Shown here one piece after another: positions 31,521 through 32,640 of a DNA stretch of 62,599 bases; the stretch's first letter is position 1; the number at the start of each line of letters is the position of its first letter. The notes beneath the pieces are model-generated. The model did not search any database. It saw only the letters and a program-made list of their open reading frames with translations, and was not told the DNA's origin. Source of the DNA: a virus (Duplodnaviria > Heunggongvirae > Uroviricota > Caudoviricetes); IMG/VR virus record IMGVR_UViG_3300045988_162118, positions 1-62,599 of that record; one strand, written 5' to 3'. The translations under genes and the position numbers were made by a program.

Positions 31521-31600
31521 ACAACAGGTAAGGGCGCTGGTGTGATTAACCAGATGAACGAGAAGGGGCCATCTGTTGGTCAGCGTCCTTTCCTGTTGCG
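31521..31600 (+). repeat. long hairpin element, unit 1 of a 4-member family
   Basis: 5' arm ACAACAGGTAAGGGCGCTGG pairs with 3' arm CAGCGTCCTTTCCTGTTGCG; inner CAGATG/CATCTG stem. Confidence 0.5.
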
Positions 31601-31803
31601 TTTTCTTTTCAGCGTAACAGCGGTGCTTAACAGCACTTTGGGTACAGTTCCACGAATTTACGGGTATATCCCGTCATGCTGAAGGCGCTAATCACGCTGG
31701 AAGCCAGGGTTGTGCATCCCCTGTTACCGAATTGCAGCCAGGGCGCGGTGCGCCGAAAAGCATACGGAGGTGGAAGCCCTCGCCGGAGACGTACCCGGCA
31801 AGT

Positions 31804-31878
31804 GATGGTGTAGCTCAGCGGTAGAGCAGTTGGCTGTTAACCAACTGGTCGGTGGTTCGAATCCACCCACCATCGCCA
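31804..31878 (+). tRNA. tRNA-Asn (anticodon GUU)
   Basis: Acceptor GATGGTG/CACCATC, D-arm TAGCTCAGCGGTAGAGCA, anticodon loop CTGTTAA, T-arm GGTGG-TTCGAAT-CCACC, encoded CCA. Confidence 0.85.
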
Positions 31879-31883
31879 CTTTA

Positions 31884-31970
31884 GGGGAGTTAGTCCGTAG
31901 GGGTAGCGGGGTAGACTGTAAATCTACTGTCATTGCGACTCGGGTGGTTCGACTCCATCACTCCCCACCA
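31884..31970 (+). tRNA. tRNA-Tyr (anticodon GUA), type II with long variable arm
   Basis: Acceptor GGGGAGT/ACTCCCC, anticodon stem-loop GTAGA-CTGTAAA-TCTAC, variable arm hairpin GTC..GAC, T-arm GGTGG-TTCGACT-CCATC, CCA; D-arm slightly irregular. Confidence 0.6.
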
Positions 31971-31974
31971 AATT

Positions 31975-32050
31975 GCCGGTTTAGCTCAGTTGGTAGAGCG
32001 CCTGCCTTGTAAGCAGGATGTCAGCGGTTCGAGTCCGTTAACCGGCACCA
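31975..32050 (+). tRNA. tRNA-Thr (anticodon UGU)
   Basis: Acceptor GCCGGTT/AACCGGC, anticodon stem-loop CCTGC-CTTGTAA-GCAGG, T-loop TTCGAGT, CCA. Confidence 0.85.
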
Positions 32051-32051
32051 A

Positions 32052-32140
32052 CACAACAGGTAAGGGTATTTTGCGACGTCGGAGATCGCCGTGCTTGGCA
32101 GAGGGTTCGAATCCCTACGAAGTACCCTTACCGTTGTGAT
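32052..32140 (+). repeat. long hairpin element, unit 2, with tRNA T-arm-like core
   Basis: ACAACAGGTAAGGGTA pairs with TACCCTTACCGTTGTG; contains GAGGGTTCGAATCCCT; no canonical acceptor or anticodon arm. Confidence 0.5.
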
Positions 32141-32278
32141 GAAGTGCAGCTCTTTGAAGCAACCAGAAGATAAGCATCTGGCTTCACAACATAAACCGCA
32201 GGAACGACCAATAAACGGTAGTCCGTATGGAGAACACCCCGTTGAGGAAGAGGCCTGGCCGGAACCGTAACCGGCACT

Positions 32279-32380
32279 ACAACGTTGAGAACACTGGCGT
32301 AACGGGGTCATATCCCAATCTACGAATAAATGTTGCGTTGCAGCGTGACAACCAGTGTTCTCAACATTGTGGTGAATGCA
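32279..32380 (+). repeat. long hairpin element, unit 3
   Basis: 19-bp stem ACAACGTTGAGAACACTGG / CCAGTGTTCTCAACATTGT; loop holds GTAACGGGGTCATATCCCAATCTAC; ends GGTGAATGC. Confidence 0.5.
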
Positions 32381-32555
32381 CAGGCTGATGTGCCGCAACT
32401 ACAGTAGTGCGCGCTTTGCGGGGCTTGCTACAACCCTGTGTCGGAGTTCAGCACCGACCATCACAGTTTGATTCTCTGGCATGAGCATAACGCTGAAATA
32501 AGTCCAGTCTGGTGCGGCCCGATCACCCGCCGTTAGCTCCACGAAACGGAGCACG

Positions 32556-32640
32556 TAACAGGTAAGAGCATTCTCCTGTAACGGGTTCATATCCCAATCT
32601 ACAGGTCCACCAAGAATGCTCTTTCCGTTGCGGTGAATGC
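32556..32640 (+). repeat. long hairpin element, unit 4
   Basis: ACAGGTAAGAGCATTCT pairs with AGAATGCTCTTTCCGTTG; inner CCTGTA/TACAGG stem around GGGTTCATATCCC, then TCCACCA; ends CGGTGAATGC. Confidence 0.5.

Follow-up and report, generated by a model that had tools for sequence, protein, structure and literature searches.

Long hairpins among the tRNA genes of a P1-like phage as probable members of an RNA family that includes the lambda small RNA LPR2

Introduction

The leader of the ban operon in a P1-like phage, represented by the 62,599 nucleotides (nt) of IMG/VR record IMGVR_UViG_3300045988_162118 (the window), raises the question of what stands between its transfer RNA (tRNA) genes. An earlier note, made from the sequence alone, drew attention to four long hairpins there, here called U1 to U4, and offered three readings of them: processing modules for ribonuclease (RNase) III or RNase P, degenerate tRNAs, or an undescribed family of phage small RNAs (sRNAs). 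The hairpins are very probably transcribed RNA elements of a family to which the lambda sRNA LPR2 also belongs. The reading preferred here, with a probability of about 0.6 as a whole, is that each unit joins a lower stem acting as a processing scaffold to an exchangeable apical core that would be its payload.

The window has the features of a P1-like phage: C4 and sok RNAs, dmt, a TerB-type tciA, the DnaB-like ban and four tRNA genes (tRNA-Asn, -Tyr, -Thr and -Met(CAU)), three of which lie in the hairpin region according to ARAGORN and Rfam. Phage P1 (NC_005856) is 98% identical to window positions 31150-32800 over 93% of the length, and its annotation makes the hairpin stretch the leader of the C1-controlled ban operon, in the order P1ban promoter and Op72 operator, 'dicF-like region', trnA, trnT, tciABC, trnI and ban.

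The hairpins and their family

The four long plus-strand hairpins described in the earlier note do exist, as inverted repeats of 14-23 nt with arms that are 89-93% complementary. Each folds as a single long hairpin with a minimum free energy (MFE) of -36 to -49 kcal/mol and a z-score of -4.7 to -5.5, and none of 200 dinucleotide shuffles was as stable. U1 (31519-31601, plus strand) has 18-nt arms that are 89% complementary (MFE -43.6, z -5.5), and in it an additional U pairs with the A that is normally bulged. U2 (32051-32139, plus strand; z -5.0) is topped at 32101-32116 by a T-arm stacked on an acceptor-like helix of 7 base pairs (bp). U3 (32275-32374, plus strand; z -5.35) is a divergent hairpin, ACAACGTTGAGAAC.../...GTTCTCAACATTGT, with 23-nt arms that are 91% complementary and an anticodon-arm-like core at 32297-32324. 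U4 (32553-32633, plus strand; z -4.7) has a top at 32575-32612, in which a 6-bp stem bears ACGGGUUCAUAUCCCAAUC ahead of an internal loop that holds UCCACCA. The shared ends ACAAC(A/G)GGTAAG ... CCGTTG(C/T)G were borne out, as was the 25-nt core common to U3 and U4 (96% identical), and GGTGAATGC stands after both of these units. With their inner extensions the predicted stems of U1-U4 comprise about 18-25 pairs, or about two turns of mostly uninterrupted double-stranded RNA, which is the feature of an RNase III substrate.

Relatives were sought with the pattern ACAACAGGTAAG-N35-65-TTWCCGTTGYG, which returned at least 120 viral contigs and, among the matches listed, 129 units with 76 distinct sequences. 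A covariance model, R1, was built from 75 units found with this pattern, U4 and U1 lying outside the training set. When the whole 62.6-kb window was scanned R1 found no matches beyond the hairpin units, of which U2 scored 62.6 bits, U4 52.2 bits (E 4e-12) and U1 37.9 bits (E 2.9e-8), with the plus strand exceeding the minus strand by 6-31 bits. In a strict architecture scan U2 and U4 showed 17 of 17 pairs. U3 gave 20.7 bits, on the minus strand, and the copies of U3 in P7 and D6 gave 30.6-30.8 bits on the plus strand. The proposed family of four thus stands for U1, U2 and U4, which one covariance model describes; U3 has the same architecture but a different stem sequence and is, as judged from its sequence, a divergent relative.

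Among the matches listed, units are 70-135 nt long and have cores of 29-50 nt that are unrelated between units. The lower stem is built of five pairs, a bulged A, two pairs, a U.U mismatch (sometimes U-A) and then at least ten pairs; its consensus, ACAACAGGUAAGAGCAUUG / CAGUGCUCUUUCCGUUGU, is present in U2, in U4 and, without the bulge, in U1, and is absent from U3 in the window. Within the subfamily this stem of about 19 bp is near-invariant (5' ACAAC-A(bulge)-GG-U-AAGAGCAUUG with CAGUGCUCUU-U/A-CC-GUUGU), and outside it the stem sequences differ while pairing is kept by covariation. All seven stem pairs that the search pattern had left free were changed on both sides (49 cells); stem covariation was 0.177 against 0.059, a value reached by none of 500 shuffles, and in slid controls pairing dropped to about 40%. 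One stem pair is a U.G wobble in 47 of 62 sequences, which on the opposite strand would read as a C.A mismatch. Covariation, this strand-specific wobble, the plus-strand scores and the co-orientation with tRNA genes described below argue that the units act at the level of RNA rather than of DNA.

The family does not seem to be confined to one stem. Three independent patterns each returned at least 120 viral contigs, and the related sequences form a family of more than 70 distinct sequences. Anchoring the search on TGAATGCGCAGGCTGATGCGC, a motif that stands after many units, gave at least 120 further contigs, in which the hairpins preceding the motif have wholly different stems, e.g. CCATCACGCATGG.../...CCAGCCGTGATGG and CCAACAAGAAAGAGCGC... 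Rfam scans of the window, lambda and 30 other loci, at the gathering threshold and by E-value, found no family that covers the hairpins or the GGTGAATGC motif.

The lambda member of the family

A family member in lambda is what ties the hairpins to an RNA seen in vivo. R1 scores 68.1 bits at lambda 44786-44863, in a unit that starts 7 nt past the T-run of tR' and shares part of the annotated orf-64; BLAST confirmed this stretch of lambda sequence at 100% identity. LPR2 was described as a new Hfq-bound lambda sRNA found by RNA interaction by ligation and sequencing (RIL-seq), giving one northern band of about 63 nt (bioRxiv 10.1101/2024.10.31.621285). The same study found it enriched by Hfq co-immunoprecipitation and expressed mainly in the lytic cycle, placed it near the 6S RNA in the late operon and recovered two RIL-seq partners, PreS and fliC; it assigned no function and describes no family, no stem/core architecture and no conservation analysis (bioRxiv 10.1101/2024.10.31.621285). 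The northern probe used for LPR2, P844 (Table S5), is the exact reverse complement of lambda 44816-44850, which lies inside the unit at 44788-44862. The lambda family member therefore accumulates in vivo as an RNA shorter than its 75-nt hairpin, and a product of about 63 nt, being shorter than the hairpin, implies cutting inside the stem. If the 75-nt hairpin loses some 7 nt at its 5' end and some 5 nt at its 3' end, 63 nt are left, which is the geometry of a staggered cut in the lower stem, near the conserved bulge.

LPR2 and U1, U2 and U4 belong to the same family by sequence and structure, and in both phages the units are on the transcribed strand, within the untranslated leader of an operon. 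The two settings differ in that lambda has one unit, directly after tR' and with no tRNA nearby, whereas the window has three or four units interleaved with tRNAs; the lambda core bears no relation to the cores of U1-U4 and contains nothing tRNA-like. A search of the Escherichia coli K-12 prophage DLP12 found no family member, Qin and Rac lying outside that search. Cutting by RNase III in the lambda leader has a precedent: RNase III processing sites in lambda late RNA were reportedly described, to go by the title, by Daniels, Subbarao, Blattner and Lozeron in 1988 (Virology 167:568), and they would lie in the Q-dependent late leader. A literature search for lambda late-leader RNase III sites gave nothing usable.

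The behaviour of LPR2 also bears on another role, in which the payloads would be trans-acting Hfq base-pairing sRNAs or sponges with the cores as seeds. Such a role is compatible with processing of the units and is considered doubtful. LPR2 was recovered with Hfq and formed RIL-seq chimeras with PreS and fliC, and it has been proposed as a possible sponge of PreS (bioRxiv 10.1101/2024.10.31.621285). Variable cores on a constant scaffold would fit an exchangeable specificity, and nearby prophage leaders encode Hfq sRNAs, e.g. STnc100/PasD and StxS. However, the units do not finish in the terminator-type structure that Hfq sRNAs typically have at the 3' end, most of the core sequence pairs internally, LPR2 has two partners only, and the cores of U1-U4 show no more complementarity to the rest of the 62.6-kb window than do shuffled cores. 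An antisense role within the phage is unsupported on the last of these grounds, the 16-nt 'matches' being merely the repeat shared by U3 and U4.

Genomic context and exchange of cores

The units occupy untranslated operon leaders of temperate enterobacterial phages and, among the matches listed, are co-oriented with nearby tRNA genes. Thirty-four of the 129 units begin 2-4 nt past the 3' end of a tRNA (29 Thr, 3 Arg, 1 Gly and 1 Asn), and the tRNAs within 1 kb share the strand of the unit in 104 of 104 cases for units found with the ACAACAGGTAAG pattern and in 26 of 26 for loci anchored on TGAATGCGCAGGCTGATGCGC. The remaining units are in lambdoid prophages, where they are preceded by genes for Q antiterminators and NinG and followed by those for holin, lysozyme and Rz, all on the strand of the unit; units often stand directly after an intrinsic terminator. 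Some of the TGAATGCGCAGGCTGATGCGC-anchored loci have an S24 CI-like repressor gene on their upstream side and a DUF2303 gene on their downstream side. The window conforms to this, its units occupying the untranslated leader of the ban operon on the transcribed strand, right after a terminator, a tRNA or a small hairpin: U2 begins 1-2 nt past tRNA-Thr, and U1 and U4 come after small hairpins. The layout resembles that of lambda, a short RNA region ending in a terminator being followed by hairpin units, just as the lambda 6S RNA and tR' directly precede the lambda unit.

Cores recur in different surroundings. Clustering of the matches listed gave 37 core, 44 upstream-flank and 51 downstream-flank clusters; 16 core clusters were each seen with two or more flank contexts (at most seven) and five flank pairs enclose more than one core (up to four). 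In P7 the ends of U2 surround an unrelated core that is 19 nt shorter, and sub-segments of the region match, in a modular fashion, phages as unrelated as Sashavirus, SSU5-like, P22-like, Uetakevirus and Klebsiella lambdoid types. Some related loci have features of their own. Salmonella phage SJ46 (L008, 1204-1733) has a deletion exactly between the 25-nt repeats of U3 and U4, and P7 (L006, 1557-1757) and D6 (L007, 1607-1807) have a tRNA-Ser(UGA), called by ARAGORN and below the Rfam tRNA threshold, with a 114-nt hairpin directly after it, the interior of which holds a sequence of about 65 nt that is found downstream of the lambda unit.

Exchange on this scale might suggest that the units matter as DNA, as mobile or recombinogenic palindromes (like miniature inverted-repeat transposable elements (MITEs), attC sites or module linkers), the RNA being incidental. 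Units and cores move between P1-like, lambdoid, P22-like, SSU5-like, Uetakevirus and Sashavirus phages, the SJ46 deletion runs between the repeated cores of U3 and U4, and the ends RCRYAAC...GTTRYGY are loosely like the R''/R' of attC, the consensus of which is RYYYAAC...GTTRRRY. Such a reading is nevertheless improbable. The U.G wobble and the bulged A are specific to one strand, every unit runs in the direction of transcription, a discrete RNA accumulates from the lambda unit, and in the flanking-gene clusters that were inspected no transposase or integron integrase is near the units. The shuffling can be accounted for by recombination at the conserved arms, and such recombination need not be what the units are for. 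A MITE or an attC site in particular is argued against by flanks in which no target-site duplications were seen, by ends that depart from the attC consensus and by the strand-specific features.

The same leaders invite a second explanation, namely that the units are cis-acting nut- or put-like elements that protect RNA polymerase from termination or from Rho as it crosses a long untranslated leader. A nut site has a single-stranded boxA (GCUCUUUA-type) 8-10 nt upstream of a boxB hairpin and binds NusB/NusE and N. The 3' arm of the units has a boxA-like GCUCUU(U/A), to be compared with rrn UGCUCUUUAACAA and lambda CGCUCUUA, and downstream of U3/U4-type units a small boxB-like hairpin, GGUGAAU-GCGCAGGCUGAUGCGC, stands 14 nt on. 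YGCTCTT recurs in 3' arms that otherwise differ, e.g. CGCTCTTTTTGATTGTGG, the small downstream hairpin is conserved and covarying, and units are found in antiterminated leaders, after Q and tR', after CI-like genes at the start of the early-left operon and after the dicF-like terminator. The boxA-like stretch is, however, locked in the 19-bp stem; it emerges after its partner strand and would rarely be single-stranded. Many stems of the wider set lack a boxA-like sequence, the GGTGAATGC hairpin is missing from U1 and U2, the motif was matched post hoc, and a unit that follows tR' cannot aid read-through of tR'. A nut-like role is, on balance, quite unlikely.

The annotated genes plp and upl

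In the P1 annotation plp and upl are two minus-strand ORFs (open reading frames) between trnT and tciA, and it had been supposed in the earlier note that the hairpins replace about 700 bp of plp/upl in the window. This was mistaken: P1 is 98% identical here and plp/upl are the minus-strand ORFs of the very same DNA, the ORFs of the window being 99-100% identical to the P1 proteins. The ORF corresponding to plp (32021-32398, minus strand) is judged not to be a gene; it is antisense to the operon, overlaps tRNA-Thr and starts with TTG. That corresponding to upl (32399-32590, minus strand; 63 amino acids) is antisense too, overlaps U4 and is probably not a gene either.

The alternative is that the minus strand encodes Plp, a putative lipoprotein, and Upl as annotated in P1, with the hairpins incidental. 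Both are annotated here in P1, RCS47 and JL22, both ORFs are open in the window, and upl matches two PHROGs, which are its only matches and of unknown function. Set against that, 20 of 46 related loci have a disrupted plp frame (16 with the match divided over different reading frames, four with in-frame stops), and the upl region in the loci compared is either identical or replaced. No Pfam or PHROG family matched plp, no promoter-like site was found for the minus strand, and the annotations of P7 and D6 include neither ORF. With its swapped core the unit of P7 shrinks from 86 to 67 nt, and the covariation follows RNA pairing. Annotation as protein-coding in relatives had been named in the earlier note as a reason for abandoning its proposal, and formally P1 supplies such annotation, but the ORF calls behave in a way not expected of genes; neither plp nor upl is likely to be one, and a coding role that leaves the hairpins incidental is extremely unlikely. 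Lambda orf-64 (L130, 569-763; lambda 44621-44815) starts inside the 6S RNA and crosses tR' into the hairpin unit, and may likewise be an ORF call over structured RNA.

tRNA-like cores

Some cores contain parts that look like tRNA. U2 holds a canonical T-arm, GAGGG-TTCGAAT-CCCT, at 32101-32116, just as the earlier note had it. At the end of the core GAGGG-UUCGAAU-CCCU(A) is stacked on a 7-bp helix, UAUUUUG/CGAAGUA, that runs into the conserved stem; the copy of U2 in Uetakevirus BUCT554 has CAUUGCG/CGCAGUG, with three compensated positions in this helix. A tRNA minihelix, the model substrate of RNase P, consists of a 7-bp acceptor helix stacked on a 5-bp T-stem with a UUCRANY loop and ends in single-stranded NCCA. 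In U2 the T-arm stands on a 7-bp helix that covaries, but that helix runs on and no NCCA is left free. In U4 a helix of 6 bp is accompanied by UCCACCA, but the loop is not a T-loop. The 6-bp stem and TCCACCA that had been pointed out in U4 (32575-32612) therefore stand, and the description of GGGTTCATATCCC as T-arm-like does not, its loop UUCAUAU being without the conserved A58 position. The CCA tail occurs only in P1-type copies of U4, in three distinct sequences of which one is a U3/U4 chimera. Across the family T-arm-like hairpins were found in 7 of 60 and 11 of 76 cores, compared with 10 of 2000 random 100-nt segments, and the control counts were 1 in 60 for reverse complements and 0.15 in 60 for shuffles. 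Of the seven, five lie 15-23 nt from the 3' end.

The core shared by U3 and U4, ACGGG(G/U)UCAUAUCCCAAUC, is a mimic of an anticodon arm (CAU) and not of a T-arm. The commonest form in relatives, CGGGCUCAUAACCC, has 14 nt identical to the anticodon stem-loop of the E. coli initiator tRNA, including the three G:C pairs (E. coli metZ reads TCGGGCTCATAACCCGA and the commonest phage form ACGGGCTCATAACCCAATC), although 11 of the 14 identical positions had been fixed by the search pattern. Three consecutive G:C pairs that close a 7-nt loop of the form YU-CAU-AN, the feature by which such an arm is recognised, were found; U4 reads GGG-UUCAUAU-CCC and U3 GGG-GUCAUAU-CCC. The pattern ACGGGNNCATANCCCAATC returned at least 120 further contigs. 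In 32 distinct sequences among the matches listed the motif sits on a stem of 5-7 bp in which all seven pairs are changed on both sides (41 cells), and covariation of this closing stem was 0.36 against 0.15, reached by none of 500 shuffles. When one genome per species was counted, the closing stem (at least 6 of 7 pairs) was present in 25 of 26 matches from Enterobacterales compared with 4 of 19 from elsewhere; about 17 chance matches were estimated for the pattern, and the non-enterobacterial count is at about that level. Two metagenome-assembled genomes, of an Acidobacteriaceae member (L361, 2581-2599) and of a Saccharibacteria member (L362, 1833-1851), carry the motif on a perfect 7-bp stem; chance matches to the pattern are expected, but chance does not predict the stems. 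The tRNA(CAU) of P1 itself has a different anticodon stem.

It might be thought that the units are functionless, being tRNA genes in decay or fragments of tRNA. They stand among tRNA genes, U2 has its canonical T-arm and the U3/U4 core is like an anticodon arm, T-arm-like hairpins are commoner in the cores than in random segments, and P7 and D6 carry a tRNA-Ser where the window has other sequence. The Rfam tRNA models (E up to 10) and ARAGORN, on the other hand, gave no match on U1-U4, in none of which a cloverleaf was found. Most family cores have no T-arm-like hairpin nor any other of the tRNA-like features scanned for, and the invariant lower stem is not a feature of tRNA. Where tRNA-like pieces are present they are on covarying stems and conserved across Enterobacterales, which indicates selection rather than decay. 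The description of the units as a whole as degenerate tRNAs, one of those offered originally, is accordingly unsupported, and decay is a very improbable origin for them.

A more speculative suggestion is that temperate enterobacterial phages employ the conserved, nuclease-cleavable stem as a cassette of general use, from which interchangeable small structured RNAs would be freed out of untranslated leaders. Some payloads would be deliberate mimics of tRNA parts that act as decoys or inhibitors of host factors directed at tRNA; this is put forward tentatively and is considered unlikely. The mimics may be the initiator anticodon arm (U3/U4 type, the ACGGGCUCAUAACCCAAUC hairpin, widespread in Enterobacterales prophages) and the T-arm/acceptor minihelix (U2 type). 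Their targets may include, for example, VapC-type toxins that cut the anticodon loop of initiator tRNA, other anticodon nucleases, methionyl-tRNA synthetase, TilS or the P site of the 30S subunit, and the mimics may complement the full-length tRNAs encoded alongside.

A proposed processing scaffold and its payloads

The reading of the units as processing scaffolds with payloads can now be set out for the window. U1-U4 would be RNA hairpins of the ban operon, which C1 controls; they would lie in its long untranslated leader and be co-transcribed with the tRNAs, tciABC and ban. In each unit the lower stem would be the scaffold and the exchangeable apical core the payload. A double-strand-specific nuclease, in all likelihood RNase III, would cut in the lower stem and so set free the apical part as a stable small RNA, of which the LPR2 of about 63 nt would be the lambda equivalent. 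The same cut would part the upstream tRNA from the message that follows, leaving on the tRNA a short 3' trailer open to trimming. The payload of U2 would be the T-arm on its 7-bp acceptor-like helix and that of U3 and U4 the anticodon-arm-like hairpin with its CAU loop. RNase III as the nuclease is favoured by somewhat better than even odds. Two of the readings in the earlier note, RNase III or RNase P processing modules and an undescribed phage small-RNA family, come near to the evidence, in that there is a large family absent from Rfam and an RNA of about 63 nt in lambda.

Parallels for such an arrangement exist. The tRNA gene cluster of T4 yields stable RNAs by RNase III-dependent processing. 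These resemble the units in being structured non-tRNAs that are co-transcribed with phage tRNAs and freed by host enzymes, but they have no shared stem with exchangeable tops, and a sequence relationship is not expected. The C4 RNA of P1 and P7 and the CI RNA of P4 (RF01695, clan CL00128) are cut from longer transcripts and combine a constant scaffold with variable specificity loops; both are made by RNase P processing. C4 is present in the window at 11417-11502, yet the units do not match this model and have no complementary targets in the window. STnc100/PasD (RF02076) is of the same prophage-leader kind, found near Q or TerB, and starts with GGUGAAU and a small hairpin as seen after U3 and U4; Pas sRNAs, including PasD, are described with intrinsic terminator ends, whereas the hairpin units have no such ends. 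Bacterial Y RNAs, e.g. YrlA, have a tRNA-like module with a T-arm on a long stem formed by the 5' and 3' ends. The YrlA stem extends from the position of the anticodon stem, while the long stem of U2 continues the acceptor-like helix, and the units gave no Rfam match at E up to 10 and have no Ro/Rsr gene context.

Several caveats must be applied to the processing scheme. What the analysis shows is the structure of the units, their family membership, strand specificity, covariation and genomic context, and that the lambda unit is LPR2; the nuclease, processing in P1 itself and the roles of the payloads are inferred. The size of about 63 nt is an approximate northern estimate, and LPR2 could possibly be a decay intermediate trimmed by other nucleases. 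The lambda sites of 1988 are only presumed to coincide with the hairpin at 44786-44863. RNase III does not require sequence conservation, so that recombination, a sequence-specific protein or some other cause would be needed to explain why the lower stem is nearly invariant in this subfamily. A long hairpin closes just before the GGTGAATGC motif in 60 of 104 cases compared with 77 of 400 random positions, by a loose criterion that 19% of random positions pass; this is a modest enrichment of only about 3-fold, to which little weight is given. In SJ46 the chimera combines the 5' arm of U3 with the 3' arm of U4, which are unable to pair, and at least one unit is therefore dispensable. Finally, in a P1 screen by CRISPR interference the targets annotated here, trnT, plp and upl, were all non-essential. 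All of these weigh against the scheme to some degree.

Neighbouring elements of the leader

By homology to the annotated P1 locus, the C1 operator Op72ab and the P1ban promoter region mark the start of the ban operon at 31121-31148 (plus strand). The dicF-like region, transferred from the P1 annotation, follows at 31245-31337 (plus strand) and ends in a computed terminator-like site at 31311-31337. This strong intrinsic terminator sits within the ban operon, upstream of the tRNAs and ban. Just past it a module of about 80 nt (31340-31420) is common to some 22 viral contigs that are not P1-like and is an exchangeable leader module.

tRNA-Asn, tRNA-Tyr and tRNA-Thr occupy 31804-32050 (plus strand; ARAGORN and Rfam), with tRNA-Thr ending at 32050, directly 5' of U2. 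tRNA-Tyr(GTA), at 31884-31970 between the other two, is the sole real difference from P1 in the region; it is absent from P1, P7 and D6 and present in some P1-like contigs and in vB_EcoM-Ro157c2YLVW. The tRNA block of the window is about 77% identical to that of N4-like phages. After U2 comes a spacer module (32133-32190, plus strand), identified by shared sequence, in which GTTGTGATGAAG...CTTCACAAC could pair as an alternative to the 3' arm of U2; window positions 32121-32196 are common to Sashavirus, SSU5-like and P22-like phages, and the spacer folded alone was no more stable than shuffles.

Small hairpins recur around the units. At 32371-32393 (plus strand) GGTGAATGC is followed by GCACA-GGCTGA-TGTGC, a covarying version of the GGTGAATGC-GCGCA-GGCTGA-TGCGC that stands after hairpins in at least 120 viral contigs. 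At 32440-32466 (plus strand) GTCGGAGTTCAGCACCGACCATCACAG is another recurring small hairpin, followed by CCA(C/T)CACA(A/G), and its counterpart GCCGGAGATCAGCACCGGCCACCACAAC recurs downstream of units in lambdoid loci. In many loci, e.g. L098, L099 and L076, GCCGGAGATCAGCACCGGCCACCACAAC is a small hairpin followed by CCACCACAAC, a tail complementary to the GTTGTGGTG that ends many units; this could be an alternative pairing or a remnant of the 5' arm of a unit. The small hairpin GCTCCACGAAACGGAGC at 32536-32552 (plus strand), directly 5' of U4, also precedes units in several unrelated contigs.

The leader of tciA (32629-32748, plus strand) is STnc100-like and structured, and it too starts with GGTGAATGC and a small hairpin. 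It matches RF02076 at model positions 31-147 of 206 with 38 bits (E 2.7e-6), the gathering threshold of 47 not being reached, and is an adjacent element separate from the four hairpins. A 2026 preprint ties STnc100/PasD and the PasA/PasC sRNAs to prophage Q and TerB neighbourhoods. Elsewhere in the window the C4 antisense RNA with its a1/b1 targets (11296-11502) and the sok antitoxin RNA (14960-15134) were found by Rfam at the gathering threshold; they are expected P1 features and unrelated to the hairpins.

Significance

LPR2 itself and an RNase III-processed late leader in lambda are already known. The literature searched holds no description of the family, of its scaffold-plus-payload architecture, of its presence in P1 as plp/upl, of its tight linkage to phage tRNA genes or of the tRNA-part mimics, and searches for an initiator-tRNA mimic or decoy in prophages and for the ban operon together with tRNA found nothing. 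Lambda and P1 are among the most studied of phages, yet the family is absent from Rfam and, in P1, annotated as two proteins. Its recognition corrects the plp/upl annotation in P1-like phages and in the plasmid records derived from them, a correction that would still be useful if the stem were only a routine RNase III site. LPR2, an orphan sRNA, gains a family with a defined architecture, and its role becomes a testable comparative question. The leader of the P1 ban operon is joined with lambdoid late and early leaders in one pool of exchangeable RNA modules, and the imitation of the initiator anticodon arm beside phage tRNA genes is a candidate RNA counter-measure against toxins and defences that target tRNA.

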